A DNA stretch of 62,510 bases, the filler included, from Hausera hauseri (taxonomy: Eukaryota): NCBI GenBank assembly GCA_046269625.1. It is 12 parts of 12 records of this genome, joined end to end, with 100 filler letters (N's around TTAATTAATTAA, not from the genome) between each part and the next. Parts side by side here need not be neighbours in the genome. Positions count along the whole stretch, not along the records: positions 21,306 to 25,511 come from JBJURY010701660.1; 11 more parts are not named here. The stretch is one strand, 5' to 3'. The translations under genes and the position numbers were made by a program. Below the pieces are notes generated by a model. That model made no database searches. It had not been told where the DNA came from and worked only from the letters and a program-made list of their open reading frames with translations. Shown in pieces: positions 9,720 through 45,240 of this stretch; positions within the stretch are counted from its first letter, which is position 1, and each line of letters opens with the position of its first letter.

Positions 9720-10047
9720 NNNNNNNNNNNNNNNNNNNNNNNNNNNNNNNNNNNNNNNNNNNNTTAATTAATTAANNNNNNNNNNNNNNNNNNNNNNNNN
9801 NNNNNNNNNNNNNNNNNNNGGGCAATCAACTATAAAAAGAGAAGTACCAAAAATCGTAACTAAGAAATATTCAGATACTTCTGCCTATTGGTTATGATAG
9901 GGATACCAGGCCTATTAGCTCAGACGATGAAACCACTCGACCCATAGATGAGAACATTCCTTCCAAACAAAACCTTAGAAAGTAGACTGACGAAAAGTAT
10001 TTATCATGAGATAACTTACACAAAAAGGCCAAAAATGCATAAAATTT

Positions 10048-11232: not shown

Positions 11233-12598
11233 TCGCTCGGAAATAATATTTTTTGGTTTTGATCTTTTGAACGGCATACTCGTCTAGCTTGTACACAAAC
11301 ATCTGCCATACATAAATTGATAGACCCATTTCTCAGTTTCGGATGTCTGGATTTTATGAATTCTTTAATAGCCGATATAATTTTTGGATTGAATTTCTGT
11401 TTGTAATAGCCTTCTCCACTTAAAGAACTGGCGGCTAAAATTTTCTGAGAAAAGAAATTCTTCATCAGCAGTCGAATGAATCTGGTGGCACTGTTTAAAG
11501 CTTTGAGCAACATTATTTGATAAAGGTCTTTTCCGATAAAATAATTCCGTAGTATGAGAAATGAGTAGAAAATTTCCGTCGGAAAAACTAGACGCGCCCA
11601 CCATCGCAGCACCACATTACCGTACCAAAAATCGGTTATTGATTTTTGACAAATTTGGTAAACTGAGAAATTCTCGACATTTGGCTTTGAATGCAATTGC
11701 TGAAATACTTTTGTTTTCCAATGAATCCAACTTTTTCACCAAATACGTTGTTACGATTCTTTGTTCACTCGTTGGATCTCGATGTAAAGTTCGACTTACA
11801 ACTTTGATAGCGTATTTTTCACAAAATCGCTTCAGTTTTCTTATGCTTGTTTTTGTATCAACTGGAAATCTCGGCGTTTGTTCTAGCTCCTTACAAATTA
11901 AGCACGTTGGCATGACGTATGGTAAAATTTCAAATTTACAGCATCTCCGTAGAACTTGTCATTTCAAATCTACCTGTTATTAGATTCAAAAACAACGATG
12001 AGTTGTAATAGGAATTGCTGTCCAATGATGCAATTACTTTAATTTTTGTGAAATATTCTAATACAGATTTTGTCAGTGATTCAGTTTGAAATTTGACGTA
12101 AAATTTTTTCTTTATACGTTTTCTAATTTTCTTAAAAATACCATGGCTTTGTGTTGACCTTTTGTCTTCTCTTTTGAATTCTTTTGATATTAGTTGTTTT
12201 CTAACTAACTGGAGTATTGATTTCACGTTGTTTTGCGTTAAGTAATAACTATAAAAAAATTGTTTGTACCTTTTAATCCATTTTAAGATGCGATTTTTAT
12301 CACTTCTTTTAATAATTGCCAGCCACATTAAATGTGTACCCGTGTTTTGAAAAGGTCCGGGAATTTCTGGTATACCATTAGACAGATTGTCCATTTTTCC
12401 AATTAACGGTATTTTATGCAAATTTTCGTTTCTCCGAATGAAATTTAACTTCCGTGGATCGCCACAAACGAGTTCCAGAGGTGTACGTTCATCAAGAGAC
12501 ATTTTAAGTAACGGTCGATAATCTGACACCATTATTACTTTAATATAGAACGGCAAAATTCCAAATAAATAAAATTCCAAATGTAGAAAATAAAGCAA
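11229..12598 (-). CDS. BEN-domain protein; upstream ORFs 11617-11913 and 11936-12598 are probably exons or neighbouring genes
   Basis: ATRFIRLLMKNFFSQKILAASSLSG..FNPKIISAIKEFI..INLCMADVCVQARR is a typical C-terminal BEN domain pattern; exon structure not resolved. Confidence 0.65.
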
Positions 12599-12931: not shown

Positions 12932-15900
12932 ATGTTGATAAACTTATGTAACTCTATACGTTTCGATATTCGTCGATTTGAAATTTGTTTTGCGCAAGCA
13001 GGCATTCCAGCAAAAGGAAGTATCTGGCGCACTTTCCTCACGCATTTTTTTACTGAATTCGGTGTAGCTGGACCGTGGCGACGCTCGAGTCTGCGGCACC
13101 ACACTACCCTCCGTTATAAAATGACACTGTTGTGGCGACACTGCAGCATTCACAATAGATCAACAACAACAAAATGCAATGCTGCAGCAACAAATTGCGC
13201 AATTATGCACAGAAAATGAAACATTATAAAAAACAATCAACAACATTAACGACAAACTAAACGCATTAACACTACCTCGACGTTTTTCTAGGCCTGCTTC
13301 CCCTGGTGTATTTAATCAACGTTAAAGACGGTCGCCTTCGCCCGCGCGGTCATTATCATAGCAAATTTTGCAACAATGCTCAGAAATTCTGCATCGGTTG
13401 TAAATTTTATTCCCCTGGTTTTAATACAAGCAACATCGTTTGCATCTACCACTCCAAATTTGGCACAAAAGCACAAAAAGGCCTACCTGACTGTACCTAC
13501 AGCACATACAATAAGACCAACACTAATAAGCTCAAACAAAACAGTAGGCCAAATTCACAAGGTCCAAAAAGCTAATTTCGCCGCAAGGACACACGGCAAG
13601 TCCTAGCAAAGGCAACAACCCGCAAAAACATAGCCGACATATTTCTTTTACTGTATTCACATTGGAAGCAGCGGTCATCACTCCAACAAAGCAAAAATTA
13701 ACTTAGACACTGGCGCAGCCATCTTTCTACTGCCACCAACACAACACATTTAACACAATTACACTTGCCAAAAGCAACTGGTCACTGCGTCTGGTGAACC
13801 TTTACAAATTTTTGGAGTCACCACATTGACATTCACCTTCCCACATTTTACAAACACATTCACAGAAATTTACAATTATGTACGCACACCTATATTGGGT
13901 TAAGACTTTATGTCCCACTACAATTTACTTGTAGATTGCAAACAATGTTCCTTAAAGAGCGGAAATAATCTTAATCAAATTAGCAGCCTTTCGATGACCA
14001 CCCCGACGATCGCGCCCAATAAGTCAATATTAAGGAAAACGACTACCGATTTGAATTATTTTTATAATCATTTATTGTACAGAAATTTTTATTACGGTGA
14101 CAAATGCGATATTGCCAACTGCTTGGCACTTATTAATAATAGCACAGTTGCCAACACCATCTTCAATACGAACATCCTATACCAAATACCTCCCAGTCGC
14201 AACTCCTCATCTATAACTCATAACTCAACTGCATCCAGTCACCTTACATCGACACCATCGGATAATTTGTCATCCTTGTCTTATCATTTACAGTAATACA
14301 TTTCGTCCTCCTGCACGCATCTGCTGCAAAAGGACAAATCATTCATACCACCTCACTCCACCTTTCATCACATAGTAACAGCTCATCAAAGACCAATACG
14401 TCAAAAGGTCAGCGCGCTATCGCCTCGCCGCAGATAGGCAGTGGAGGCTGAGTTTCTCGAACTGGAAAGATCCGCCATAATCAGAAAATCCAAATCCCCT
14501 GGTCTTCACAACTACATGTGATTCCAAAAAAAGATGGTACCTTTCGCACATGCGGTGATTACCGCCAACTCAATATCATAACAACAATGGATGCCTACCC
14601 TCTACCATTAATCAACGATATCCTTCACTGGCTCCATGGTTAGACCATCTTTTCCTGCATTGATTTGCACAAAGCATACTACCAAATTCCGGTGGTCCCA
14701 GTAGAAATTCCCAAAACAGCTGCCGTTACCCTTTCAGCCTTTTCGAATATCTTTTTATGCCTTTTGAACTCCGTAGCGCTTCCCACAACTTACAAAGGCA
14801 TATCGACACAGTTCTTTGAGGTTTAGACTTCGGATGACATCTTAATTGCATCATCTTCCTCGAAGCAGCACTTCGAACACCTACGTTTGATCTCCCAAAT
14901 CGTGCAACAAAACAATTTGCAAATTAATTTCGCCAAATGCTCCCTTTTTTCAACATAAGATCAACTTCCTAGGACATGTTATTAGCTCCTCCGAACATTC
15001 ACCTCAGCCAGAGCGCATCACACAGCTCAAAAACATTCATATACCACGTACATCAAAAGAGATGCGTTCTTTCCTGGGAACCTTGTACTTTGTTCATAAG
15101 CACGTTTCGCACTGTTTCACTCTAACTGCTCCATTTGCATCACTAAGCTCTGGCAAGAAGAAACAGCCTATTCAATGGACCGCCAACTTAGTCAATGATT
15201 TCGATCGCATCAAGACAATTTAAAAACTGGAAATTATGCCCTATCCATACTCCCATGCAGAACTTTTCTTAACCACCGACGCGTGAACAACAGCTGCAGG
15301 TGCTGCCCACATCAAGTTAAAAATGGATCCCATGAGCCATTGGAATTCTTTTCTCGAAAATTCACAGCACAAGAACAAAGATATTCCACCTTTAACACAG
15401 AGTTGCTTGCAATGGTCCTTGCCGTAAACCACTTCAAACATCTCATAACTGCATGAACTTTCACAAGACAAACGGACCACAAGCCCTTACTTCAAATTCT
15501 CACTATGAAATCGCCTTCCCCACGTCAGGAGAGGTAAATATCGTATTTGTCAACATTTAGTTTTGTAATTAAGCACTTAGACGGAGTCGGCAATTTAGCA
15601 GCTGACTGTTTGTCCCGATCAGTCAGCTCGACTGGTTTCACACCAATTTTTCCCCAATCCAAACGTCAGCAAAATCAGCCACCTCCTGACATCCTTAAAT
15701 CTATTAAATCTTGCAAAACCATCGACGGCGTGGCATTCGACACCTCCTAACCTAAAATTCCCAAAATCATTCTTTCTGGGTCGCTTCAAAAGGAAGCGTT
15801 CCACAGTGTACATTCGTTGCATCATCCCGATACCAAGGCCACTTTTCGCATCTTACCACGTCAAGTAGTATGGCCGTCAATGCGCTATGACGTGCAGGCA

Positions 15901-16020
15901 TGAGTAAGGCAGTGTGGCATGCAAAAAATACAAAGTTGTTAAGCACCAAAAGCCACCACTATTTCATTTCCCTGCACGTCTCGTTTTGAATCTCTTCACA
16001 TTTACCTTGTACGCCACTAC
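12932..16020 (+). mobile_element. Ty3/Gypsy family 1, degenerate copy (partial gag, PR, RT, RH, integrase Zn finger)
   Basis: CIYHSKFG, LDTGAA, HYNLLVDC, IDLHKAYYQIP, GVGNLAADCLSR, HSLHHP; collinear with 6180-9719. Confidence 0.88.
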
Positions 16021-16559: not shown

Positions 16560-18760
16560 ACTGATGAATAAACAGGGTATTCATATTGCTCCATGTTTAG
16601 ATATTATTGAAAACCACTAAACTGTTGTTCGTTTAATTAATGTACATCACCAACAAAAGATTATGAAGAAACGAACTCGAATCAGTATCGTATACAACGC
16701 ACAATATGTCGAATATGCATTAGACGACAATCTAGAAAGTGAAACGATATCCAACAAAACGAATAATAATCTTCTAAAGTTCCCTAGAACATTTATCAAT
16801 GAAAAATTAAAATGTGATGGAAACATTAGCTTAACAGATGAGCAAGAAGGTCAACTTCGAAAATTATTAATAAAGCATCAGGACGTATTTACTCGTAACG
16901 AATATTAACGATTAAGACTTTAAAACATTCTACAAAGTTAGAAAAGAATAAAGAGAAACCTATCAAAGTGACCATATCATTTAAGTTATGATAAAAATAT
17001 TCAAGCACGGGAAATTATTATAGAAATGAACGAGCATAAAATCATATGCCCTAGTCACTCTCCGTGGACAGCTCCCATGATCATTGTAAAGACGAAAGAT
17101 GGTACAATGAGGTTCTGTTCAGAATATCGGGATCTGAACAATGTAACTGAGAAAGATACTTATCCTTTACCACGGATAAATGATCTTTTGTATCAGCTTC
17201 ACGATGCAGTTATATTTACTACCGTCCATCTGCAAAAGAGATATTGGCAGGTAGAAATCGAAGAAGATAAGCCTAAAACTATGTTTTCCATTGGCAAAGG
17301 GCTATGGGAATTCGAAAAGATGCCATTTGGGTTAACGAATGCGTCCGAAACTTTCCAAATATTGATGGATCTTGTGCGGTTAGGATCAGAGCACACTTTA
17401 GTGTGCGTGGATGACATTATAATTGCTTCACCAAATTTTAAACAACACTTGGAAGATTTGGAGGATTTGTTCAACAGACGTAAAATAATTGGTGTAAAAA
17501 TTAATTTAAATGTGAATTCGGCAAAAATTAAGTGGACTTTCTGATACATCGAGTATCTAGTAGTTAGGATCGGTATGGTCGGCAATATCGGCGGTTCAAA
17601 ATCAGGATTATCACTTGACATCTTATCGGCCTTTCCTATCGAATCCGTTTCACGCATTTCGTCAAAAAGTTAAATATTTTATTCATTACAAATATTCAAA
17701 GAAATTTTCGTTTATGAAAAATAAATCATTTTAATTATTATTTATTTTTCTGAGCCATCACTCTAGTAAAAACATTGGACCCCACAAGAAAAAATACTGA
17801 ATAAAGTAAGATTTTCCGAAAACACTAAAGTCCTTTAGGCGTTTTCTGGGAATTGCTGGTTATTGTAGAAAGCACACAAAAGATTTTCATATAATAGCTA
17901 CACCATTATATGAACTTATCAAGGACGAGAGTTCTCCTAAATGAACAACAAAATGCCAAAGACTTTTATCTCCTCCAATATTGCAATATCCAGGCTTAGC
18001 GAAACCGTTGAGTTTAATGACCGATGGCTGTAATGTTGGTCTTGGTGTGGTACTCACACAAATGGGTGAAGATGGAAAAGAGCATGCAGTAACTTATGCA
18101 GGAAGAAGTTTGAAAAAGCTTGAAAAAGATTATTCAACGATAGAGAAAGAATTACTGTCAGTAGCTTATGCAATGGAGTTGTTTAGTTCATACACTAGTG
18201 AGACAAAAGTTATAAAGGTTTATACCCATCATAAACCATTGTAGTGGTGTATGTACTTTCTACTATGGTTAATTAACGGCCGGATGATTGGGACGATTTT
18301 ATCAAATCATGCTTATTCGCTGCTCGAATGGAAATACGTCCAGAAACAATGGCAACTCTTTTATCTAATGCATTTGAGAGACGCAAATATATCGATAGAT
18401 GTTAAATTTTTTCCACCAACGGCACATTTAATAGAAATATCCGATTACAAATAGTTAATGTTAGAACGCCTGGGAGAAGTATGGAGCACGGCAGGCATCC
18501 AAACGACAAACTATCAGGCCGATTATAAGGACGCATGACGACAGAACGAAAATGCATAAATTTCAAGTTGGAGATAAAGCTATGTCACACGTACCTCTTC
18601 CTAAGAAAGGAAAGACATCAAAATTAGATCGCCCATATAAAGGACCCTATATAATTGAAAAGCTTGACAATACAAATTTATATTTAAGAAAAAATAAGGG
18701 ACGAAAGGCATGCATGGTGAAAGTGCATGTTAACCGGTGTTAAGAAGTCAAGATTTAAAT
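16560..18760 (+). mobile_element. Ty3/Gypsy pol fragments (family 2): RT, RNase H, integrase C-terminus
   Basis: SPWTAP..DGTMRFC, DTYPLPRI, MPFGLTNA, CVDDII; TDGCNVGLGVVL, YSTIEKELL; GPY/F motif DRPYKGPY. Confidence 0.88.
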
Positions 18761-19103
18761 AGCTCTCAAACTATAGAAACAACACGAATTAAAACTTAAG
18801 AAAGGAAGAGTGAAACACAAACAATTCCCAGGTCAAAAGTAAAGAGAACTCCACATTCTCAGAATAATAGGATTCAGTCGGAAAATCTGGTTCAACGCTT
18901 TTAAATACCATAAATCTCGTTGTTTTCCAAACGAGTACAATCTTAGAAGCTATCGTACACGAGGGCGTGAAGATCAGATTTGAATGTTACCATGAAGAAA
19001 AAAAGTTGACGATGGATATTTGACGAATACGGAATCAATGTCGTCATATGTGGGCCTTGAGTCTAATTCCGAATAGATAATTAAAATATTTGAAATTTTC
19101 AAG

Positions 19104-20040
19104 TTAACACTTTCGCGCACCGGCGACGCGTATATGCATCCTATGACTTTTAGCGCGATTTTCTTATCTTAACTTTTTCACATCAAATACATTGATATCA
19201 CATTAGTCATCAATAAAAGCATTATACATTTATTCATTCACCTACTCATTCATTCTTTCATTCACAATAAAGTTTCATTTTTTCAAGTGTAATAATCTGA
19301 TTCTGGTTCAGAAACGGATATTTATTCATATTCGAGTGATGGGTATTCGACTGACAATCAACCTGAAATTAGAAGATCACGACGGTTTTATTGGCAAAAA
19401 TCTAATTTTCGTCCTAAAAAATGTGATTTCGACAGTTCTTCATCGGGAATTAGCGATAATATATCAATTGAGAGCTTTTGATTATTTCAAGGTATTCTTT
19501 GATGAAGAAATAATGCAAAAAAACTTTGAAATGGCAAGATGTAACATCATCTGAAATGTATAGATGAAAATTTACTGCTTTACAAGGGAAGCCTATCATT
19601 TACACAGTATTTATCTAACAAGAGAAGTAGATTTGGGATAAAATTTTTCATTTTGTGCGATTATGAAAGTAAGTTCGTGTTAGAATTTATCATTTACACC
19701 GGAAAAGATACAAATGTCGTCAATGGTGAAGAAATTGGCATTTCAGGATCATTGGTAAAACCATTGATGCATCGATACGGGAACCGAAATCATATACTCT
19801 ACATTGGCAACCGGTATTCTAGCCCTATCTTATTCGAATTACTGCAGAAAAACGGACTTGGAGCTTGTGGAACAGTGAAATATTAGCTCTAAAGTATATG
19901 GATAAGAGAGAAGTCTTCAAGCAAAGCTCAGTACATGCTAATGATATGGTCGATACGGGTAAAAAGGATCACAAAACGAAGAGAAACATCATCAAGTCAT
20001 TATGCATAACTGAGTACAACCAATATATGGTGATTTTAGA
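19104..20040 (+). mobile_element. piggyBac transposon relic (PGBD4-like), internally deleted
   Basis: TTAA-CACTTT putative left end; FDYFKVFFDEE; IDENLLLYKG..QYLSNKRSRFGIK..LCD..IYTGK; (D>G)NRYSSPIL..ACGTV. Confidence 0.85.
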
Positions 20041-21160: not shown

Positions 21161-21329
21161 TGTTTTAGGCACAACAAATTGGATATGGAAAGAAGTTTTT
21201 CTGAANNNNNNNNNNNNNNNNNNNNNNNNNNNNNNNNNNNNNNNNNNNNTTAATTAATTAANNNNNNNNNNNNNNNNNNNNNNNNNNNNNNNNNNNNNNN
21301 NNNNNATTCATAAGAGGAGGAAAATAAGG

Positions 21330-21456
21330 TTCATTTACTGATTGAATTGAGTGAAATGTTATATCAACTTTTACAATAAAAAACTTATGGAAAATTCTAC
21401 TTTACAATACTCGTGTGACGTTGATGTCGGAATGGTAGATACACGAACTACTTACA
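21330..21456 (+). repeat. About 125-bp repeat, probable LTR 3' end, truncating the family-3 pol; homologous copy at 45879-46002
   Basis: Shared TGACGTTGA(T/G)GTCGGAATGGTAGATAC..CTACT(T/A)ACA, upstream AATAAA, terminal CA. Confidence 0.65.
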
Positions 21457-23920
21457 GTCATAATAGCACTTGTTTTCGTTTTTAATCGTGACAATGCATC
21501 CGCATCAACGTGCTTCATACCAGGTTTATATCGGAATTCAATATTATATCTCGAGATCTCTTCAATCCATCTAATCAACCTACACGAAGGGTTGTTTGCT
21601 CGTGCCTTTAAAGTTGTAATTGCCTTGTGATCGGTAACTATTATTATCTTCTGTCCATATATGTAAACGGTAAAATGCCTTAATGCTTCTTTTACTGCTC
21701 GAGTTTTTAGTTCGGTCACTGAATAATTTTTCTTTGCTTTCTTCAGGGAGCGTCCTCCATAAGCGATTGGGTGTTCTAGTTCTTCATCTTCGCGTTTCTG
21801 TGCCAATTCATATCCAATACCTTCTTTACTTACGTCTGTTTTAATAATAAACGGTAAGTTAAAATCAGGATATCTCAGTACTGGTTCGCTAGTTAGTATC
21901 TTCTTCATTTTGTCGAACGCCTATTGTTCAACGTCGGTCTATCTCCATTTCGTTCCCTTTTTTAATAGTCGATATAATGGCGCATTGATTTTCGAGTTAT
22001 CTGGTACGTAGGTACCATAATATCCACATAGACCTAACCAATGTCTCAGTTCCTTTTGGTTCTGAGGTTCCATACAGTCTGAAATTTTGTTCTGTAATGA
22101 TTTGACAGGCTTGGATCCTCCTTTGCCAACTATATGGCCCAGGTAGGATACGGAGTTTTGAGCCAATCTACATTTCTTTGGGTTCAGCGTCAACCCAGCT
22201 TGTTCTAATCTCATAAGAGTGTCTTTAATATCCGTCAGATGCTCTTTTTCGTCTTTTGATGCAATCAGTACGTCATCTAAGTACGCAAATGCGTGTTCAA
22301 GTCCCATTAGCATTTTGTTCATCATCCTGGTAAATATGGCTGGGCCAGTGGTAATTCCAAATAGCATAACGTTAAATTCGTATACGCCACTGTGAGATTT
22401 AAACGCTGTTTTATAACGATCCTCGTCTTCGATCTCTACTTGCCAATATCCGGATTGTAAGTCCAAAGTTGTAAACCATTTTGCTCCTGATAGACTATCT
22501 AGAGTCTCTTTCACGGATGGTAAGGGAAAAGAATCTTTCATTATGAGAGTATTTAATGCTCTATAATCGATACAAAATCGATATTTCGTGGTACCCTTCT
22601 TTTTGACCATAAGAATAGGGGAATACCACGATCTGAAACTTGGTCGGATTATATCGGCCTTTAACACACGTTCTACCTCTTTGGTTATCTTCTGCCTCAG
22701 GGAATGTGGTAGCGGATACCATTTTGGCATTTTCTGTTCCTTGAGATCGATTTCATCGTCGGAACCAGGCTTTTTCTTAAGTGGTATAGTTAATTTTATT
22801 GTCTTTGCTCGGTCTATGTCTTCTTCGTCCTTCGCAATGATTGATTTATATCGACATAATAATTCGTAAAACTGGCAATAAGCTTCTGGTAAAAACTTCT
22901 TATCGACATGTGGTGGAAATTGGGCGTACTTCTACGGTTTCTCTTCAACCGTTGTTGCTGACATTTTGTAAGTATGCCCTAGAGTAGTGTTAGCATATAA
23001 CCTCACTGGAGTCTGGGCATTATTCACTATCCTTACAGGTATTCGTCCCGACGCTACTCGGGTTAATATACTGCTCAATATTATATTCGGGTTTAGTGCT
23101 TCTTTTGGTTCAAAGTATACTGGCAAATTATCGTCTTGACAGATTTGCGCGAATATCAACTATTCCGTTCTAGGCGGAGTGCTGTCGTCGACCGGAATCC
23201 AGACTTCTTTGGGTTTTCTCTCTATTAATTTTAGTTCTTTTCATCGGTCCGAGCTCGATTAATTTCGAGGTATTCAAATCTATCGCGACGTTTGGTAGAC
23301 GTCTTAATATATCACACCCTGGCACCACATCATCCGTCAATTGTTCCATTATAGAAAATTCATGTTGGAACGTTTGTCCCATTATTTGAAGATTATGATT
23401 CCACTTAAATGTTGGCCTTGATTCTTGTCCGAAACCTCCTATACTTCTGGGGTCTGTTGATAGTGGTAAACGTAGTTGATTCCTTAGTGTTTTTGGTATC
23501 GATCCGTCTTTTATAAATGATTTCTCTGATCCGGTATTTACTAGTGCGTATACTTCTCAATCGTCAATACTAATTTTGGCCAAAGGTCTACATTCTTTTA
23601 TCTTAGGTTGTTTAACGACAGATATCTTGTACGCATTTATATTAATTTCTTGTGCTTTATTTTCGGCTACTTGTCTTAATTCTTCAATGGGATATAATCC
23701 ATTATTTACACTGTTTTTGTTGTCTCGATCCGGCGTATTGATTAGCGGTTTTCGGTTGTTTTGGTTATGGGAGGATTGCATTCGTGGATTGTCCCAAATT
23801 AATGATTTAGTTTCTATATTCCGTGAAATCCTTGGAGAGTATATCACTCTGTGGTCATCCACCGATTGGCGGCACAATTCCGATTTTTCCTTAACTCGGT
23901 AGATGTTTCGTAACACGCCG
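21457..23920 (-). mobile_element. Ty3/Gypsy family 3 pol: aspartic protease, RT, RNase H
   Basis: VYALVNTGSEKSFI (about 23530); RFCIDYRALN, LDLQSGYWQV, AYLDDVLI; KTDVSKEGIG, VTDHKAI, HVDADALSR. Confidence 0.93.
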
Positions 23921-23999
23921 TATTGTTTTTTCCCCTCATAGGGATCTTTGTAACTGAAAGGCTTCCGATAGATTTCCGAACTATAGGAGTTAATGGATC

Positions 24000-25511
24000 T
24001 CTTATCGCTGTCTTTGTATTGCGGTACCGAAGGGGGTAGAGTGGCAAAGGCGGCTGAGCGTCTTACGATTGCTTACCTTGGAGACCGCGTCTCCTCCCTT
24101 AGGCTCATCGTCATCCGAATCGTTTTTTCGAAATTTTGTATTTCTTTGTCCTATAAAAAATATAGGTTTTCTCTTTCGTTGTCTCGCCACGTTGCTTTTC
24201 CATCTGTTTTCTTCGTAGGCCTTCAAAAATTTTCCAAACGATGTTATGATTGCGGTCAAAATTTTGCATGAAAATCAGGTTAGAGTAAATATTTCATAAC
24301 CATTTATGATAGATTGAATTATAGCCTTTACGAGTTGTAACAAGAAGTAGATGACTAAAAATCCTGATGCAGCTTGTCCGAAAATTAAAAATCTTTCCCA
24401 AATGTTATATAATATTTCTGTAGTGACTCTTTGATAATGATTGACGCCAAGTATGGATTCCCATTTTGCTTTATAGCGAGTGTCATCCATTACCGTTGAC
24501 ATGGCTCTATTTAGCTCATGTGCACGTTGTCGAGGGAAGGCTAAAATTTGTTTGAAAGCTTCAATTTCATTTGGTCTGTAAATCCTTTACTTGCAGTGTC
24601 GGCGAACTTATCGTCTGTTNNNNNNNNNNTTATTCCTTTTAACAAATTTATTCCAGTTAATTATCCAGGCGTTGCTATTATTACTCCATTTTGAAGACTT
24701 TTGCAATCTGTCTCACTTCTCTTAAACATAAGTTCGCCTAAGCCTACTTTACATTCTTTTAAAATTGTTGGCTGTGTCGAGTTTTCTAGCAAAACTTTTG
24801 TAAGTAGCATAGCCAATCGCGGTACATTTTGATATATGACTGTCAATTCTTGAATACAACGTTTTTCCTCCACATTTAGGGATACGTCCCGTTTTTCACA
24901 CTCGTAGGTCAACAGAACTTCTCCTGTAACTCTTCCGAAAATGCCTTCTTTCATTGGAATTACAGGTGACGCTAGTTCTGGATTTGCATATATTAAGGCT
25001 ACTTTGGTTCTCATAATTTCTATATCCAATTTACAGTCGTTTGCGATTATCTTGTGAGATAACTGTGCTAGTCCAATTTGCCCTTTATAATAAAAGTAAT
25101 AATCTCTATTCTTTAAATAATCTTCTATTTTTACATCTTGTGTTTGGAGAGAAAAAGTAGCTATTGCAGCTTCTGCTACGAAGAATGCTTCATAATTTGT
25201 GGTTTACATTACTACATCACATCGGGAAAGCATTTACTTCTTAATTAACTTCAATCCGTGACCTTGGGAGATCAATATCCTGGGTGTCGATTGTTCAGCG
25301 ACGTCCTTCCTTGACCTGGCATTATTGTCGGTTGCATATACATATCTTTTTCCCGTGGTTTCGTCAAAATTTATTTCTTTTATTTTAATAAATTTGCAAT
25401 CGTTCATAGGTGGTGGGGTCAAAATAACTATCGAATTTCGGAAAGTACAGGCACCATCTTGGATATGACACTTCTGGTTTTCGGTATATTTTTGTGTAAC
25501 TCTATGGAACA
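24000..25511 (-). pseudogene. Envelope glycoprotein, chuvirus-G/herpes-gB-like class III fusogen (C-terminal half, TM helices, tail)
   Basis: CKLDIEIMRTKVALIYANP..GIFGRVTGEVLLTYEC..RCIQELTVIY; IYRPNEIEAFKQILAFPRQR; WERFLIFGQAASGFLVIYFLLQLV transmembrane segment. Confidence 0.72.
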
Positions 25512-25743
25512 NNNNNNNNNNNNNNNNNNNNNNNNNNNNNNNNNNNNNNNNNNNNTTAATTAATTAANNNNNNNNNNNNNNNNNNNNNNNNNNNNNNNNN
25601 NNNNNNNNNNNCGGTAAGTATATGATGATTCGGCGATATGGGTGCATGGTTTTCATCTTTCTGTCCCAGTTTACCGAATCTTTCATTTGCGTTTCGTTCT
25701 AATTGTTGTAATGCAAGCAAAACCGACACCATCGACGGCAACG

Positions 25744-26773
25744 ATGGGCGACGTGTGGTTCGATCCGCGTCAACCCGTCGGGTATACTGGCGTCGACAAA
25801 CTGGCAAAGACTGTCAAACAGACTCGGAAATAGACCCAACGTTGGCTCGGGAAACAGTTAGCATACATCCTAAACAAACCGATAAGAAGGCGGTTTTCAA
25901 CTCGTGCATACCGTGCTGCCGGTGTAAATAATGTATGGTAAATGAATCTGATGGAAATGATTCTGTACGCTAGCATCAACAATGGGTATCGGTACGTTCT
26001 GACATGTGTTGATGTGTTTAGTCGTTTTGCACGTGCAATTGCTATGAAATCTAAATCCTGTAAAGAGATTGCCGATGCTGTCTAGACACTGATACAACAA
26101 CAACAACAACAGTCACTGAAGCATTTACAAACAGATTTGGGTAAGGAATTCTACAACGCCCACGGTCTTGTAGACTGTTCGGCGTAAACCATTACCCTGT
26201 GTTTTTCCAATTCAAGGCTGCACTCGTAAAAGATTTAATCAAATATTGCGCGGTCACCTAAACAAATTCTTTACGACGCAAAACAACAAACTCAGGATAG
26301 AAGTACTACCAGATATTATTCATGCACACAATCATTAGACACATAGGGGTATCAATGGATTGCGGCCGGTTGAGGTAATCGATGATTTGAACATGTGGCT
26401 TTATCAAAACCCACGAGGACGACAGGCAATTAAACGCCCAAAATATAAAATCGGTGCTTACGTACGTATTTCTAAAATAATTACGATGCCATTCATTAAG
26501 AATTTCAATCAGAACTGGAGCGACGAGGTTTTCCGCATTTTGGCAATCAACACAAAGCAAATACCTGTCATGTACGTTTTAGAGGATGAAAACAGTGAAG
26601 AAATACGCGGTAAATTCTAGGAAAAGGACCTGCAAGTACTGCTCGAGAAACCTGATGTATATCGTATTCAGGAAATTCTACGTTCAAGTGGAAATGGTTA
26701 GAATAAACAATATCTCGTCAATTGGCACGGATACACTACACCGAGTTGGATTTTTGCATCTCAGATTGAGTGA
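25744..26773 (+). pseudogene. Polinton rve integrase with C-terminal chromodomain (copy A)
   Basis: WFDPRQPVGYTGVDKL, GYRYVLTCVDVFSRF, LQTDLGKEFYN, NWSDEVF, YRIQEIL..YLVNWHGY. Confidence 0.9.
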
Positions 26774-27840
26774 TGAGCATTTATTAGGTACTTGATAGTA
26801 ATAGATCATTATCACAACATGACGACGACAATGACGACAATATCGCTAAACAGTTTACCGTGCACTTTAACCAACCGGTCGATTTACGCCACGGAGCCTA
26901 AGAAGTGGCTTTGACGGAATTCATATTTATATTTTCACAATGACAATAAATCAGAACAGTGGTATTTACTTTATTCAACAAGAAACGTACCCTATTTCAA
27001 GTTATTTGCGTACAATCCGACACAGTAACCGATATATTTTTCGCAATTATTCGCGAGAAAATTTTTCGGTTTATGCTTATTTTTCAAACTACCGTATGAT
27101 ACTAATGCATCGAAATCCCATGGATTTGCAGTTTAAATCTATAGCTGATGCTCAGGCATAGGGTTTTCAATCAGTCAATGTACACTCAAAACGTCTACGG
27201 CTAGGTGGACATGTTATAATTGGTGAAAAATTGGACTTTTCATCCAATGCAGAATCCAAAATTATAGTAAAGTGGACTAAGTCAGAATCCGTCTTCCGCT
27301 CATATACTATACCACACGATTTATTAATGCAAACAGAACTGGAATTGTATGAGTACGTCAAGAAAACGGCTACATTAGCCTTAAAGACATGTGAAATAAA
27401 CGCAGATGGTCATATTTCAATTATACTACATGACAAGGTTACATAATTTGCATTTGATGAATTATTCGTTCTGAATCTGGGATTTCACAACGCGAATACA
27501 ATCAAAACATTGTTGGACGATCTAATGTTGCCAAATACAAACCACAAGTCTATGGAGCATTTCACCGAATCAACATTTTAACTGACTTAACCGAATCCAA
27601 ACTCATTGATGAAGAACGTAAACAACTAGTGGCTTCTATCGAACTGGATTCTGACACGTACAAAACATCACATCGGGTGAAACTGTGCGCGTTAATATGC
27701 TCAGAACCATGTACTTATCATTGTCTCACAATATTGTGCACAGTATTTCCGTGTATATGATTGATGAATTTTGGGAACCCATTAAACTTCTGTTGGGGTC
27801 AACGACACATTTGACGTTACATTTTCGGCGCCGTCGATAA
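26773..27840 (+). pseudogene. Minor capsid (penton) protein 1, copy A
   Basis: N-terminal MSIY..F..EVALTEF and C-terminal MYLSL..TTHLTLHFRR. Confidence 0.75.
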
Positions 27841-27896
27841 TAAAGAAACTCTGCCATCACTATCATCATCATCATCATCATGAGATCATCGAGATC

Positions 27897-28849
27897 ATGA
27901 GCATTTACATGGTGTTGCCAAGCATCAGTTATCCGACGACTCGTCCGAACAATTCAGCCAGTGAATACGTTGTATATTGGAACAATCATTTGGAATTATC
28001 TTCTAGACAGTGGGCGGTTACATTGACTAAATTTAACTTTCCCTACGCACCGGTGACATCGAAAGGTAGTATGGAAATAACGTACAACAAGACTGTTACT
28101 GAAACAAAAACACTTTTTTGTCCTCAGACACTTACTAACAATAAAATAACAATCGGAGAATCGGTCATTTGCACGACCAGTACAAATTACGATTTATACG
28201 GCAAGATCGGTGTTTTTATTTTTGGGAAAAACTGACATTTTGTGGAAAATTTTGAATTTACTGTCACTTTTGAGTCCTCTGATATGGCGCAGAAATTTGG
28301 ATTCAAAAATATCGAATACAAAGGTAAAGATATTAAAAGTGAATATGTGGTTGCTCCAAGATTAAGTCCTGTACATTACCAGACAACGGTGAAATTTACT
28401 TATACAGAACAAAGGGTGTCAACATCATACATATTAATTGAAGACAATGTCTATTGCGAATCTGTAGCACATCTTTGTCGACACTATTCTTCAAATCAAA
28501 AGTACAAGGAGATATTTAAAGTTTTCGAGTCAGATGCAAATGGGTTGATTAAAATTGAATTGTCTAAGGATATTGTCAACATTTCATTGGACAAAGCTTT
28601 GGCAATGGTATTGAATTTTGAAAAACTGCGGTTTGAGGCATCGACGGCGGCGGCGGCGGCGGCACATGTTGCAACACTTAAACCAAAACTAAAAACGGGA
28701 CTAAGTCAAATGTACATTATGTGAACGTCACTAAACCGATTTTGGTCGGTGGAGTACGTGTACCTCTACTCCATGCAATTTATCCGGAAAGTAGCAAGTA
28801 TACTGCTGGCGACAATGCCACTGTCAAGCTCGATAATCCAATGTACCTG
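27897..28849 (+). pseudogene. Minor capsid (penton) protein 2, copy A, truncated by an insertion
   Basis: MSIYMVLPSISYPTTRPNNSASEY..WAVTLTKFNFP; LVGGVRVPLL..DNPMYL. Confidence 0.8.
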
Positions 28850-30527: not shown

Positions 30528-31136
30528 CTAATCTGAACTTTCATTATCATCATCCTTGGTATCATTGAGTAGAATTGTTTTGTTATCGTCTTCTATGGCA
30601 GTAATGTCTGAATGGGCATGGGAATGGTATTTATAGTTTCTTGTTGTTGTGCAATGTACATTATTTTGATTCAGTAAAATATTTATGTGAATTTTAATTT
30701 GATTAATAATCATTTTATAGTCCACTGTCCGAATACCGAGTACAACTATTTTTCCCCTGCTAAACACATTGACACAAAGTGGGCGAAACGATGTCAGTCT
30801 TAGTGCAGGAAACAATTCGGGTTCATATGTACATTCATCAGTGGCCATTGCTAATCTGTACAAATTGATTTTTTGGTGGTGGTAGTCTAACTGATTCGTT
30901 ACCGTTATTGATTGGATTTTGTCAATGACAATTTCGAATGGTAATAGTTTACTGTCGTCAACTGTGATTGGTTTGCGACAACCCATAATACAACACTTTC
31001 CCGATTGAAATACGATGCATGTAAAATTCGGTGGACACCGAAAAACATACTGTTTCGGCTTCCATTGATTAAAAGGTATTGTGCTAATAATGTCACACTC
31101 GGTAACATGTCCGCGATAGTTGATATTAGCTAACAT
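30528..31136 (-). CDS. Divergent TATA-binding-protein (TBP)-like protein
   Basis: Two TBP repeats: TCIVFQSGKCCIMGC and INLYRLA..YEPELFPAL..VNVFSRGKIVVLG (canonical: ALIFSSGKMVCTGA; YEPELFPGL; LLIFVSGKVVLTG); intronless. Confidence 0.85.
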   Translation of the reverse strand: MLANINYRGHVTECDIISTIPFNQWKPKQYVFRCPPNFTCIVFQSGKCCIMGCRKPITVDDSKLLPFEIVIDKIQSITVTNQLDYHHQKINLYRLAMATDECTYEPELFPALRLTSFRPLCVNVFSRGKIVVLGIRTVDYKMIINQIKIHINILLNQNNVHCTTTRNYKYHSHAHSDITAIEDDNKTILLNDTKDDDNESSD

Positions 31137-31236
31137 TATGAAAACAGTTTTTATACTATAGCTATTTATATATGCGTGTAACATGATTATAAACAAATCA
31201 TGTGATGGTGAGGGAAGGTTGTATTATTATTATTAG
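31137..31236. promoter_or_regulatory. Putative bidirectional promoter between the TBP-like and ATPase genes
   Basis: About 100-bp gap between divergent starts, with TATAAAA and TATATAAATA on minus and TATAAA on plus; the AT-rich background weakens this. Confidence 0.3.
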
Positions 31237-32008: not shown

Positions 32009-32471
32009 ACCACCGCTACAGTAAAGCGATTAATCAATTCTGTGCTTCGTCGAACAATAACAACAACTAGACGCAAATTACCGTTACAGGGGCAACGGTT
32101 ATAAACAACTACGTCAAATCAGCATCAATACGTCCACAAAAAGCATGTGATTCAAACGTAGTCAACTGTACTTTATTGCTTTGATCAAGGCACCTACGAG
32201 ACATAAGCAAAACATGCTACGATCATTCCCACAGTTTGTAGTAGACGATTGGATGGAAAATGTGTACAATATCGTCGTAGGTCACGTTGACATTGGTAGT
32301 GGAAAGCGGAATTTACTAAAGTATCGAAAACGACTTATTGGCCTTGTCAACGCTCATAGTAAACGACTGAAACTAGAGGTTATGTACCAGCAAGACGGTG
32401 GATTCCTTGGTACAATTTTACCTATTGTCGAGTCATTAGTGGGTGGACTCATTGGTTCTGCAACAACATGA
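32004..32471 (+). pseudogene. Small Polinton virion protein with C-terminal QxGGFL amphipathic helix
   Basis: ENVYNIVVGHV..LLKYRKRL..QQDGGFLGTILPIVESLVGGL; second copy at about 57125-57488 (-). Confidence 0.75.
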
Positions 32472-32623
32472 TAGTATAAACAGTGACCGTAAGTATATGA
32501 TGATTCGGCGATATGGGTGCATGTTTTTCATCTTTCTGTCCCAGTTTACCGAATCTTTCATTTACGTTTCGTTCTAATTGTTGTAATACAAGCATCAAAA
32601 CCGACACCATCGACGGCAACAAC

Positions 32624-33602
32624 GATAAGCGATGTGTGGTTCAACCCGCGTCATCCCGCCGGCTATACTGGCGTCGACAAACTGACAAATACTGTCAAAC
32701 AGACTCGGCAACAGACCTAACGTTGTGTCGAAAAACAGTTAGCACACAGACTAAACAAACTGATAAGAAAGCGGTTTCCAAGTCATGCATACCGTGCTGC
32801 CGGTGTAAATAACGTATGGCAAATGGATCTGATGGAAATGATTCCGTACTCCAGTATCAACGATGGATATCGGTACGTGCTAACATGCGTTGATGTGTAT
32901 AGTCGTTTTGCATGCGCAATTACCGTGAAATCTAAATCCTGTAAAGAAATTGCCGACGCTGTTCAGACACTGATACTACAACAACAACCGAAGCATTTAC
33001 AAACGGATTTGGTTAAGGAATTCTACAACGCTCACGTTGCAGCGGTATTGAAACGGTTCCGCTTAAATAACTACTCGGTGTTTTCCCAATACAAAGCTGC
33101 ACTCGTCGAACGATTTTACGAACATTGCGCGGTCGCCTAAACAAATTCTTTACGAACCATGGCACAAACGCTGGGTAGATATACTACTGGACACATCGAC
33201 GGCATCGTGGCATCAATGGATTACGACCGGTTGACGTAATCGATGAATTGGACATGTGGCTTTATCAAAACCAAACACGACGACAGGCAGTTAAACGTAT
33301 TTCGAAAATAAGTACGACACCATTCATTAAAAATTTCAATCGGAACTGGAGCAGCGAGGTTTGTCGAATTTCGGCAATCAACACAAAACAAACACCTATC
33401 ATGTACGGTTTAGAGAATGAAAACGGTGAGGAAATACGCGGTAAATTCTGCGAACAAGAAATACAGGTACTGCCCGAGAAACCCGATGTATATCGTATTC
33501 AGGAAATTCTACGTTCACGAGGCAAGGGTCTGAATAAACAATATTGTCAAGTTGCACGGATACACTGCATCGAGTTGGATTTTTGCATAGCAGATTGAGT
33601 GA
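32624..33602 (+). pseudogene. Polinton rve integrase-chromodomain (copy B)
   Basis: WQMDLMEM, LTCVDVYSRF, LQTDLVKEFYN, KAALVERF. Confidence 0.9.
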
Positions 33603-34660
33603 TAAGCATTTATTTGGTATTTGAGAGTAACAGATTATTATCACAACATGACGACAATAACAATACCGCTAAACCGTTTACCATGCACTTCCACCAACCG
33701 TGCGATTTACGTCCCGGAGCCTAGGAATTGGCCTTGACGGAATTCACATTTACATTTTCACCAATGGCAATACGTCAGAACAGTGGCATTTACTTTAACC
33801 GACAAGAAACGTACCCTATTTCAAGTCATTTTCGGACAATCCCACAGAATAACCCATATACTCTTCGCAATTATTTGCGACAAAATTTCTTGGTTTATGA
33901 TTATCTTTCAAACTACTGTGTGAAACTAATACATCGATATCCTATAGAAATGCAGTTTAAATCTATAGCTGTTGCTCAGGCATGGGGTTTTCAATCAGTC
34001 AATCTACACTCAAAACGTTTACGGCTAGGTGGATATGTTATAATTGGTGAAAAATTGGATCTTTTATCCAATGCCGAATTCAATATTACAGTAAAGTGGA
34101 CTAAGTCAGAATCAGTCTTTCGCTCATATATTATACAACACGATTTATTAATGGAAATGGAAATGGAATTATGTGAGTACGTCAAGAAGACGGCTACATT
34201 AGCTGTAAAAACATGTGAAATATACGAAGATAGTCAAATTTCGATTATACTACAAGACGATGTTACACATTTTGCTTTTGATGAATTATTGACTAGGAAT
34301 CTGGGTTTTTAAAAACGCATATTCTATCAAACCATTGTTGGACAATCTATTGTTGCCAAATACAAACCGCAATTGTATGGAGCATTTCATAGAATTAACA
34401 TTTTAACAGACTTAACCGAATCTGTACTTGTTGATAGAGAACGTAAACAATTACTGGCTTCTATCGAACTGGGTTCTAACACGTATAAAACATCGTGTGA
34501 AACTGTTCGCGTTAATATGCTCAAACCCATGTACTTATCATTGTCTCACAATATTGTGCACAGTATTTCCCTGTATATGCTTGATGAATTTTTGGAACCC
34601 ATTAATTTTCTGTTTGGGTCAACGACACATTTGACGTTACATTTTCGACGTCGTCGATGA
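33602..34660 (+). pseudogene. Penton 1 (copy B)
   Basis: ALTEFTF; KQLLASI..PMYLSL..HLTLHFRRRR. Confidence 0.78.
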
Positions 34661-34699
34661 TAAACAAACTGCATAAGCATCATTGACATCATTGTGAAT

Positions 34700-35776
34700 A
34701 TGGGCATTTCCATGGTGTTGCCGCGCAACAGTTGGCCGACGACTCGTCCGAACAATTCAGCCAGTGAATACGTTGTAGATTGGAACAATCCTTAGTATTT
34801 ATCTGGAATATTGGAGGTTGCACTGACGGAATTTAACTTTTCCTACGCACCGGTGACATTGCAAAGGTAGTATGAAAATAACGTACAACAAGACTGTTAT
34901 TAAAACCAAAATACATTCTTGTCCCCTGACACGTACTGACAATAAAATAACAGTTGGAGAATCTTCCATTTGCACGAGTACAAATTACGGTTTATACGGC
35001 AAGATCGGTGTTTTTATTTTAGGGGAAACTTACATTTTATGTCAGATTTTGAATTTACTGTGAGCTTTGAGTCCTCTGATATGGTGCAGAAATTTGGATT
35101 CAAAAATATAGAGCACAAAGGTAGAGATGTTAAAAGTGAATATGCAGTTTCTCCAAGATTAAATCCCGTAAATTATCAGACAACGGTAAAATTTATCTAT
35201 ACATCAAAAAGGGTGTCAACATCATACGTATCGATTGAAGAAAATGTCTATTGCGAATCTGTAGCACATTCCTGTTAACACTTTTCTTCAAATCAAAAAC
35301 ACAAGGAGATATTTTAAGTTTTCTAATCAGATGTAAGTGGGTACATCAAATTTGAACTGGTTAAGGATATTGTCGACATTTCATTTGATAAAGCCTTGGC
35401 TATGATATTTGGTTTTGAAATACATCGGTTTGAGGCATCGAATACAAAGATGGCACATATTGCAATGCTTAAACCCAAACTGAAAACTGGACAAAGTCAA
35501 ATGTACATTTACGTGAACGTCACCTAACCGATTTTGGTCGGTGGCGTACGTGTACCGCTACTCCGTGAAATTTATCCGGAAAGCAGCAAGTATACTGCTG
35601 GCGACAATGTCACTGTCAAGCTTGATAATCCAATGTACCTACCTGTGGCAAGTACATCTATAAACAATGTTTAAGTCAATATCAGATATGACGAGGACTA
35701 CTTTATTGGATTTCCGTACGGTACCACAACCAGTCAAACTCTTCATTTCCGTCGAAACCAACAACAACACGATTGA
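34700..35776 (+). pseudogene. Penton 2 (copy B)
   Basis: RPNNSASEY..EVALTEFNF; VGGVRVPLLR..NPMYLPV..HFRR. Confidence 0.78.
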
Positions 35777-42034: not shown

Positions 42035-45000
42035 CTGATAGGCTCCATACGGAAAATCACACGTTCTCATTGCGGAGCTAGTTTGATCCACAAATATTAT
42101 TTGGAATTTTACATAATCTTTAACCGATTCGCTTGCCTTGAACCATGCACATGGTTTGCTCCAGTCCATATCGCAGACTCTAAGTGACTACAAATTTTGC
42201 ATATCCTTACGTCTTTTCGCATGTTGTTGTTTTTCGGTTCGAGCTATTGGCCTTATTTTCGGCATATACGAAGCGATTAATGAAAGGCCAAGAATTGTTT
42301 GTACATATAATATCGGTCTGGTTACTATTGATGACATTTTCTTTTCTTTCTTTGTTTGACTCCTATTTTCTTTACTTGAACGCAGATTATAGCGTTTATT
42401 TGCCTTATTTCCGTTTTAACCACTCTTTTAACGACCTCTTCTTTGCCATTTTTGTTCGTACAAATTGTGGCCGGCGTGGTTCTGCGAACCTCATAAGGTC
42501 CTATTCCGGTTCGAGTGAGCTTCAAAGATGTGCCTTTCTTGGCTACCGGGTAGTGTACATAAACCCAATTTCCTTGTTCTAGATCATGTGATTTAGCCTT
42601 CTTGTCGTATTGCTTTTTAAATTGTTCTTGATACCATTGAGAAAATTCTTNNNNNNNNNNTTCGCGGGATGTGGCGTAGTATTAATAGCAAATTGAGTAT
42701 CTTCTAGAAATTCATCCCAATCCTTCTGATCTTTTGCGACTGCTGTTGACAAAATTCGTACAACCGTTGCGTTCATTCGTTCGACCATTCAGTTGCATTG
42801 AGGGTGATAAGCTGTCGTCGTTAATTGTTCAATCTCAAATATTTTGGTAATTTTATCGAATAATTCACTTGTAAAATTCCTTCCTTGATCCTCCAAGTGT
42901 GTTCGGGCAGTCCATATCTGCAAATAATTTTCCTTACTACGGCTTCTGCCAGAGTTTCAGCCTTTTGATCAGTAAGTGCTATCTGTTCGACAAAATGAGT
43001 TAATCGGTCGATACATGTCAGAATATATTTATTACTTTTGTGAGTTGTAGGTAATGGTCCTACGATATCCGTAGACATTGCTTGTATCGGCCTATCCTGT
43101 ACATTTATCGGTTTGAGTACAGCAATATAATATCGCACTTTTTAGTGTTTAGTTGCGCATACTTCACAAGCGTTTACCCAATTTTTTACATCAATATAAA
43201 TGCTTGGCCAGTAATATTTATTCAATATTTGTTCGAATGTCTTTTTCAAGGACATGTTTCCAGCTAAGTATGAGTCATGTTCGGCCATTAACATTTGGGT
43301 TCATAATCCTTTTGTTATAACTGCTAATTTTTGTCCTTTACGTTAGTAATATAAAACATTTTCGTGGCTTTCGTCATTTGATACACAATATTTATGACCG
43401 TATCTCTGTAAATGTTTTCGTAACTGGTGGCCTTTTGGTATTATATCTTTTCTACAGATTCAATTCTTTGTTGCATAACCCTATCCTTCTTTTGTTCAAA
43501 AGGAATCATAATTGATTTATCCAGCGTTAAAGCTCGTTGTCTATCCGGTAACTCCTCGAGTTGAGTTTTTCTTATTACAGTAGTTGCGCTTGTTTCAGAT
43601 TTTAGTATAGATAGTGCATTGGCATCGACATGTTTACTTCCGAGCTTATACTGGAATTCGATATTATATCATAAAATTCCTTCGATCCATCTGTTTAGTC
43701 TACACATCGGACTATTTGCTCTTCCTTTTAAAGTCGTAATGGCCTTGTGATAAGTAAAAATTATAATTTTCTGCCCGTACACCTAAACATTACGTTTCAA
43801 ACTCCGTAACTGAGTAATTGTTTTCCGCCTTCTTCAATGATCGTCCTCCATAGGTTATCCGGTGTTCCTATTCCTCATCTTCACGTTTCTGGGCTAACTT
43901 ATATCCAATACCTTCTTTGCTAGCGTCAGTTTTAATTACAAATGGCAAACTAAAATCAGTATATCTTAAAACTGGTTCACTGGTTAAATTTTCTTCATTT
44001 CGTCGAAAGCTTTCTGTTTAACATCTGTCTATTTTCATTTAATCCCTTTTTACGTAAACGATACAATGGTGCATTTATTTTCGAATTATCTGCTGTGTAT
44101 GTAGCGTAGTATCTATACAAGCCTAACTAATGTCACTAATCTATTTGATTCTGATACGATCCGATATTTTGTTTAATAATGAATTGTCGGGTTTTGATCC
44201 TCCTTTTCCAACTATATGTCTAAGGTAGGATACTGCATTTTGGACCTATTTACACATCTTAGGATTCAGCTTCAATCCTGCTTGTTCCAATCTCATGAGT
44301 GTATCTTCACTATTTTTTAAGTGTTCCTATTCCGTTCTTGACGCGATATTACGTTGTCGAAATATGCAAATTTGTGTTTCAATCGCATCAATATTTTGTT
44401 CATCATTCGGATAAAAATAGCTGGTCCGGTTGTTATCCCGAGTGGCATAACGTTAAATTTGTATAAGCCATCATTAGTTTTAAATGCTGTTTTCTAGCGG
44501 TCTTCATCCTCTATCTCTGCCTTCCAGTATGTGGATTGCAAGTCTAGTGTAGTAAACCATTTTGCTTATGAGGATTTATTTAGGGCTTCTTTTACTGATG
44601 GTTATGGAAAAGAGTCTTTCATTATAAAGGTGTTCAACGCTCGGTAATCGGTACGAAATCCATGTTTTGTGATACCTTTCTTTCTGACCATGAGTATAGG
44701 TGAATACCAAGATCTGTAACGAGATCTAATTATGTCAGCTTTATGCATTCTTTCGACTTCTTTTGTTATTTCGCGCCTTAGTGAGTGCGGCGTAGGATAC
44801 CATTTTGGGATCTTTTGACTTTTAAGGTCGATTTAATCGTTTGAACCAGTTTTTTTCTTAAACGGAATCGTTAACCTCAGATCTATGACTGCCAATATCT
44901 TCTTCGTCTTTAGCAATAATTGATTTATAACGACACATGAGATCATAAAAGCGACAATACGATTCTGGTGAAAATTGAGTTTCAACATGCGTCGGAAATT

Positions 45001-45240
45001 CGGCGCATCTATAAGGTTTTTCCTCTATAGTTATTGATGATACTTTATAAGTATGGCCCAAAGTAGTATTAGCGTACAGTTTAATGGCGGTTGGCGCATT
45101 TTAGCTATACTGATCGGTAAACGACCTGTTGATACTCTCGTTAGTACATTACTGAACACGATGCTCGGATTTAACATTTCCATTGGTTCGAAATATTCTG
45201 TTTGATCGTCGTCTTAGTGAATTTGTGTGTAAATCAGCAT
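42035..45240 (-). mobile_element. Ty3/Gypsy family 3, second degenerate copy (RT, RH, integrase, post-integrase ORF)
   Basis: Nucleotide-collinear with 21457-23160; DIVGPLP..KYILTCIDRLT, MVERMNAT, GPYEV. Confidence 0.9.

Follow-up and report, generated by a model that had tools for sequence, protein, structure and literature searches.

Does an envelope gene (env) lying directly upstream of the protease belong to the design of a retroelement, and where, in that case, does its gag gene sit? The question is raised by a gypsy-type element on the minus strand of a 62,510-nt stretch of DNA from Hausera hauseri (assembly GCA_046269625.1), called the window below, for which an original prediction had proposed an env-pol polyprotein of unusual and possibly infectious kind. 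We will argue that what is seen is very probably the middle portion of a decayed Ty3/Gypsy long terminal repeat (LTR) element with the gene order gag-env-pol (Burro-like), truncated on both sides by contig ends. The layout itself is already known and has been in print since 2019; what is new is the divergent lineage and the features that its relatives share.

The locus and its envelope glycoprotein

It is important to point out that the window is made of contigs joined via eleven 100-bp spacers, and that the order of the contigs is no evidence of adjacency. The joins are artificial: in each spacer, a 12-bp linker with stops in all frames is flanked by 44 N on either side. The whole feature is held by one contig (21306-25511) flanked by two such spacers, and the sole gap of this contig is a run of 10 N inside env (24620..24629), just as had been predicted. 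Along the minus strand, the contig reads env glycoprotein, anchor, a tail rich in K, R and D, a linker, protease (PR), reverse transcriptase (RT) and RNase H (RH). This order, also part of the prediction, is borne out by matches to PF24664, PF00077, PF00078 and PF17917 and by the anchor.

We consider env first. The middle part of its ectodomain, of the class III chuvirus/glycoprotein B (gB) type, is encoded at 24634..25509 (-); it matches PF24664 (Monjiviricetes fusion glycoprotein) with E 2.4e-11 and an env profile with an independent E-value (iE) of 1.3e-55, and it contains 3 in-frame stops. The C-terminal stalk, membrane-proximal region and anchor follow at 24176..24592 (-) in a different frame (profile iE 9.1e-27), with the transmembrane anchor itself at 24329..24385 (-; hydropathy 1.83 over 19 amino acids, aa). 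A second PF24664 match spans 24583-24008 (E 1.2e-18). On the env profile, which was made from 11 relatives, the focal env covers positions 190-639 of 666; only about the C-terminal two thirds of env are thus present, the N-terminal third being lost at the contig end. The same profile has no other match in the window below iE 2.6.

The focal env is a class III fusogen of the chuvirus/herpes-gB type, as the original prediction had suggested on the chuvirus side. When the profile of alignment A1 was compared with solved structures, all 35 of the 35 sequences found at E<=1 were herpesvirus gB (best 1.7e-5). A structure model of a 292-aa env piece, with a 48-residue central helix, was obtained at a predicted local distance difference test score (pLDDT) of 77.9 and a predicted template modelling score (pTM) of 0.48. 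Foldseek searches with this model gave 19 matches at E<=0.001 in BFVD (best 1.6e-8), to chu-, xinmo-, qin- and rhabdo-like glycoproteins. Against the PDB there were zero matches at E<=0.001; herpes gB was found weakly there, at a best E of 9.3e-3, and class III fusogens made up 38 of the 39 rows shown. The comparison of a predicted structure with class III fusogens, which had been named as a check, thus came out in favour of the assignment. Atlas, in addition, puts the env of the relative P0122 among PF24664 clusters at 0.95.

The downstream part is of the gypsy type throughout. The aspartic protease lies at 23173..23556 (-; PF00077, E 5e-6), with a degenerate active-site motif near 23540. It is followed by a PR-RT spacer (22932..23168, -), which can be aligned to the corresponding stretch of gypsy pols, occupies the position of the dUTPase-like segment of Burro and has no Pfam match at E<=10. 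RT with its connection is found at 21942..22928 (-; PF00078, E 1.3e-37; YLDD at 22283), and RNase H at 21546..21866 (-; PF17917, E 1.2e-29). The named RT matches are Ty3-G, 412, 297 and K02A2.6-like polyproteins. Taken together, the type of RT, the order PR-RT-RH and the presence of integrase (IN) after RNase H in a sister copy described below indicate that the element belongs to Ty3/Gypsy (Metaviridae), the lineage that had been predicted.

The focal copy is dead. In-frame stops interrupt it 9 times, the frame changes near 24585, 24070 and 23170, and the protease motif is degenerate, as already mentioned, so the idea of a possibly infectious element does not hold for this copy as it stands. 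Integrase is absent because a 160-bp dispersed repeat (21306..21465; 80% identity to another copy at 45853-46011) replaces the sequence past RNase H and the contig then ends. A fragment of a Tc1/mariner-type transposase (PF01498, 46313-46660, +) is found ~300 bp away from that other copy. Similarly, gag is not visible because the contig ends inside env; the N-terminus of env, gag and the 5' LTR would fall beyond the 100-bp assembly spacer at 25512..25611. No LTR-like repeat was found in the contig, where none of the 7 families of direct repeats exceeds 31 nt, and no tRNA gene in the whole window. The base composition is even along env, linker, PR and RT.

The junction between env and protease

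Relatives of the focal env were collected by an exhaustive HMMER search with the env piece, which gave 67 matches, 23 of them at E<=1e-10; a word-based search with the same piece among longer proteins had returned no significant match among 2213 candidates. Motifs were scanned in all 67, and Pfam domains in the 13 of the 23 best that are at least 748 aa long. In 11 of the 23, env runs into PR within one open reading frame (ORF), and 5 of these 11 extend as far as RT and RNase H. The remaining 12 of the 23 stop in env or at most 41 aa past it. An RT motif upstream of env was seen in 0 of the 67. Since 11 relatives have the same junction and none of the 67 has RT upstream, the env-PR junction is a property of the family and not an accident. 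A separate search points the same way: PF24664 is carried by 2 of the 120 RT matches listed, and both read env-PR-RT-RH-IN. Hydrophobic segments around env recur among the relatives as well: of the 12 that cover the start of env, 9 have a signal-like one ahead of it, and a counterpart of the C-terminal anchor is seen in each of the 15 env-bearing relatives that were examined.

These results bear directly on a first alternative, namely that the junction arose by chance, when deletion, nesting or misassembly joined to the protease of another element an env that came from a canonical gag-pol-env element or from a stray insertion of a chuvirus glycoprotein gene. The assembly is indeed fragmented and repeat-rich, the placement of RT (see below) is not firmly within the env-pol group, and the 5' end of the sister copy stops before PR and so gives no confirmation of the junction. 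The recurrence of the junction in the 11 relatives speaks against this scenario, as do the sister copy, which has no env after integrase, a linker with 170 open codons and the motif of the family, and a junction free of N-gaps and repeats. We therefore consider a chance junction very unlikely. The two findings that had been named as damaging to the original prediction, gag directly before PR in other copies and a junction unique to this one, were not encountered among the relatives.

The relatives also answer the question of gag. CCHC knuckles lie upstream of env in 5 of the 11 env-PR relatives; CCHC knuckles or Gag are found ahead of env in P0124, P0130, P0131, P0136 and P0142, with Retrotrans_gag (PF03732) at 79-173 of P0136, and in P0093 zf-CCHC before env is part of a gag-env-pol ORF that is complete at 2440 aa. 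The order in the family is therefore gag-env-pol, and the gag of the focal copy would lie past the contig end. This changes the proposed env-pol polyprotein in part: the fusion of env upstream of pol stands as a feature of the family, but its gag-less form does not. Likewise, the uninterrupted frame exists as single ORFs in relatives, while the focal copy, with its 9 stops and 3 frame changes, does not have it. A truly gag-less element, either non-autonomous or with Env as its only structural protein, would be suggested by P0121, P0123 and P0128, which start 125-139 aa before env without a Gag domain. However, these are predicted ORFs that may begin after a stop or a frameshift, the five relatives with CCHC or Gag upstream belong to the same env group, and the contig is cut inside env, so the absence of gag cannot be seen in it. 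Such an element appears to us the least credible of the alternatives, and gag-env-pol remains the preferred order.

We now turn to the linker between env and PR, the presumed cytoplasmic tail (23560..24069, -). As predicted, it is mostly open and lacks a zinc knuckle: there are 170 open codons in the PR frame, a length reached in 0 of 2000 shuffles, and no CCHC. The distance from anchor to PR, ~265 aa in the focal copy, falls inside the range of 82-360 aa of 13 relatives. The linker has no Pfam match, and a Gag-capsid profile made from 5 relatives, which matched 33 other proteins among 187, did not match it. The share of polar residues is 64%, against 45-55% in four capsid domains. With the repeats of the contig all short, these results agree with the earlier claim that no gag or LTR lies between env and PR, and the linker is best read, from its sequence, as Env tail and not as Gag.

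The order ENV-GAG-POL, with a very short Gag inside the linker, has to be weighed at this point, as it is reported for two oribatid mite elements (PMC13524379). The linker would be long enough for it and is open in the PR frame, and a frame change sets it apart from env. The failure of the Gag-capsid profile, Pfam and CCHC searches in the linker, and its more polar character compared with capsids, argue against a Gag there; furthermore, relatives with such an env carry Gag upstream, and the linker shares their YP motif. We judge this order highly improbable here.

The motif in question, a hydrophobic residue followed by YP, is present in the 100 aa ahead of PR in 9 of 13 env-pol proteins, against 0 of 33 control pols, the latter being those of 118 non-env RT matches that have the full 100 aa ahead of the protease motif. 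In the focal copy it reads LYP (at ~23697), ~55 aa before the PR motif and at a similar distance to that in the relatives. The pattern YPx(1-3)L was seen in 7 of the 13, with 1.95 expected from shuffles, the first protease of P0126 having been overlooked by the pattern. The hydrophobic-YP motif resembles the LYPx(n)L late domains of retroviruses. Its distribution would speak for homology of the linker better than for function. A few searches found no literature on the YP motif of the linker or on the post-integrase protein described next.

Several further observations were made on the relatives. P0121, P0122 and P0143 have a Bcl-2-like segment just before the env signal, with mutual matches of E 8e-12 to 0.004; PF00452 matches P0122 (E 0.00096) and P0121 (E 0.2), both short of the curated cut-off. 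In P0121, P0123, P0126, P0128, P0130 and P0136, 2-4 tandem aspartic protease domains follow env in one ORF, and P0123 has an additional protease-like motif past integrase. In-frame extensions after integrase are present in P0123 (2440-2855), P0124 (2230-2627), P0132 (after 2760) and P0008 (after ~1050); they show a signal-like segment and then a later transmembrane segment, and may represent a second membrane protein. The post-integrase stretches of five relatives gave no mutual BLAST match (E>=0.056), and they matched the window only at the C-terminus of integrase.

Phylogenetic placement, host and neighbouring sequences

In a quick tree, the focal env, on a long branch, falls within a group of 17 rows with a Shimodaira-Hasegawa-like approximate likelihood ratio test (SH-aLRT) support of 99, apart from stand-alone glycoproteins. 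The group consists of 11 env-then-PR proteins, 5 truncated relatives and the focal env.

A sister copy of the element is found at 42035..45200 (-), with 71% nucleotide identity over 1672 bp. It comprises the PR-RT spacer, RT, RNase H, integrase (rve match) and the start of a hydrophobic ORF, and it is decayed, its 5' end being missing. The hydrophobic ORF begins right after integrase (42035-42337, -), where the relatives named above have their in-frame extensions. The possibility that it is the start of an env in canonical order was considered and rejected, as it has no env-profile, Pfam or BLAST-to-env match. Since integrase is followed here by an ORF that is not env, the family is not of the gag-pol-env type.

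The RT tree with the sister copy was calculated from 35 of the 124 protein rows of a FastTree set plus the two rows of the window. The focal and sister RTs group together at 100/100, with a long stem of 0.8 substitutions per site for the focal RT. Their sister group, at 78/77, consists of P0132, P0142, P0008, P0127, P0123 and P0124. The RT phylogeny, which had been proposed as a check, is thus clear about the pairing with the sister copy and not significant about the joining of the env-pol group. An approximately unbiased (AU) test of one clade of all 7 env-pol rows, P0008 and the window pair gave p 0.296, by which the clade is neither rejected nor shown. The pairings P0132 with P0142 and P0123 with P0124 are kept in both RT trees.

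It is important to note that several points weigh against the gag-env-pol assignment of the focal element. The 78/77 support just given is one, and another is the FastTree tree of 125 rows, in which the focal RT stands elsewhere, on a long branch near the env-pol protein P0098. Identity to the nearest relatives is only ~30% for env and 37-42% for RT-RH. Gag, the LTRs and the env start lie outside the window, so that the order is shown in relatives and not in the focal copy; similarly, the frame change near 24070, between the env tail and the linker, means that the in-frame fusion is not directly seen. As for the YP motif, it was selected with the sequences already in view, and the 13 rows, 4 of which lack it, are related to each other. 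Finally, P0130 has a DTG-like motif also upstream of env, without a Pfam protease match there.

As to the host, the window contains exons of NUP210 (4994-5854, +), an acyl-CoA dehydrogenase (54881-55357, -) and EMC1 (57844-62236, -). These, with their introns, point to an animal. EMC1 is unusually divergent, with ~35% identity to the best matches (cestodes) among those listed. The comparison covered 43 of the 120 EMC1 matches listed, 37 of which were placed in a tree, where the long branch of the protein stands next to flatworms (SH-aLRT 89); by summed BLAST scores, however, nemerteans, brachiopods and molluscs are favoured. A flatworm host would fit the known range of gag-env-pol elements.

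The remainder of the window is rich in other mobile sequences. Further decayed gypsy-type pols are located at 16972-18800 (+), ~6600-9720, 13300-16000 and 48000-52200 (+); they are 24-40% identical to the focal element at the amino-acid level and have no env-profile match. Four blocks (25614-28848, 32108-35640, 36926-40172 and 53510-57488) are 79-84% identical, with an rve integrase at 32721-33137 and a piece of protein-primed DNA polymerase B nearby at 52672-53187; we infer that they are decayed Polinton/Maverick-like copies. An ORF with a TBP domain (30531-31220, -; PF00352, E 1.7e-14) lies near Polinton/Maverick-like sequence and is possibly element-borne. Two ORFs that look fibronectin-type-III-like by eye and have no Pfam match (10015-11229, +, and 11232-11735, -) adjoin a BEN-domain ORF (PF10523, E 7.8e-7), and a piggyBac-type DDE fragment (PF13843) is present at 19545-19883 (+).

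Proposed working and comparison with known systems

For an intact member of the family, the following scheme can be proposed. One long gag-env-PR-RT-RH-IN polyprotein would be made, the Gag part of which would remain cytosolic. An internal signal segment would thread the Env ectodomain into the lumen of the endoplasmic reticulum (ER) and then be cleaved, and the C-terminal anchor would bring the chain back to the cytosol, leaving linker-PR-RT-RH-IN on the Env tail. This topology, with cytosolic Gag, luminal ectodomain and Pol on the tail, is suggested because hydrophobic segments flank env, by the established rules of membrane-protein topology. The protease would next free the Pol parts from the Env tail. 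Pol would thus enter budding particles via Env and not by a Gag-Pol fusion, at a Gag:Env:Pol ratio of 1:1:1, and the LYP motif of the linker might act as a late domain recruiting the endosomal sorting complex required for transport (ESCRT). Particles, fusion and spread from cell to cell are inferred only.

A bolder version of this scheme would make the focal element part of a deep, undescribed gag-env-pol branch in an unreported host group, and the whole group enveloped viruses of non-retroviral design. The polyprotein would cross the ER membrane twice, Pol would be packaged on the tail of a fusogen, budding by ESCRT would be driven by the YP motif, and integrase would be followed in frame by a variable second membrane protein. 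We regard this as unlikely in its entirety. Gag-env-pol is in any case a little-studied build of an enveloped retroelement, with the fusogen of a negative-strand RNA virus inside the polyprotein, and the locus adds a divergent, long-branch lineage to this known architecture. The features shared by the relatives, i.e. the flanking hydrophobic segments, the YP motif, the repeated proteases and the putative membrane protein after integrase, bear on how particles would assemble and on whether they move between cells.

The architecture had originally been regarded as unusual. It has, however, already been described for Burro (PMC6431247) and for the GAG-ENV-POL errantiviruses (PMC13524379), and it is with these that the element should be compared. 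The chuvirus-derived glycoprotein of the Anakin elements (PMC7642597) is a more distant parallel and the BEL/Pao case to which the original prediction referred: a chuvirus-type glycoprotein in an LTR element is shared, but Anakin elements are described as BEL/Pao, while the focal pol is Ty3/gypsy. Atlas virus, described as a belpaovirus whose env is of class II and follows pol, was considered and set aside as not relevant.

In NERV (nematode endogenous retroviruses; Sacco et al. 2022, doi 10.1099/jgv.0.001739, as cited in PMC13524379), env and pol were flipped in their order after a metavirus captured an RNA-virus glycoprotein. A nematode host is not indicated for the focal element, and the EMC1 comparison held no nematode row. 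NERV reportedly has one continuous gag-env-pro-pol ORF.

Burro/GYPSM1 are giant planarian gypsy-like elements in which a single ORF has env placed in frame between gag and pol, the order given being Gag, CCHC knuckles, Ubi/SUMO-like, BCL2, mononegavirus-glycoprotein-like env, PR, dUTPase-like, RT, RH and IN (PMC6431247). The focal copy resembles this description in its env upstream of PR, the mononegavirus type of this env and the spacer between PR and RT. Among the relatives, the weak Bcl-2 match just before env in the two best env matches (P0122, P0121) and the three CCHC knuckles of P0130 add to the likeness. The single env-pol ORF is broken in the focal copy; it is seen in 11 of the relatives by env and in 2 of those by RT. 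The size reported for Burro (>30 kb, with an ORF of ~5000 aa), its long LTRs and its Bcl-2, BIR, ankyrin and MATH domains are beyond what the focal fragment covers. Burro was compared by description only and the focal RT sits on a long stem, and membership in Burro proper is unsupported.

Ty3/gypsy errantiviruses with GAG-ENV-POL order and an ENV of the HSV/gB type have been reported from Nematoda, Bryozoa and Platyhelminthes by Chary and Hayashi (PMC13524379), with 9 flatworm elements in supplement 1; the same paper gives 114 gypsy elements whose glycoprotein is the chuvirus-like one known from Pao elements of mosquitoes. These errantiviruses, again compared by description, share with the focal element a Ty3/gypsy pol, a gB-type env, and env upstream of pol with no Gag between. 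They are intact, often multicopy and flanked by LTRs, whereas the focal copy is decayed and truncated and, with its 9 stops and 3 frame changes, falls outside the intact-ORF rule by which elements were included there. The main text of that paper uses none of the words 'polyprotein', 'fused' and 'frameshift'. The short Gag that the mite elements are described as having between env and pol was not found in the focal linker. The gag upstream of env would lie beyond the contig in the focal copy and is present in 5 of the 11 env-PR relatives and in P0093. By analogy, an intact form of the focal element would work like Burro and the GAG-ENV-POL errantiviruses.

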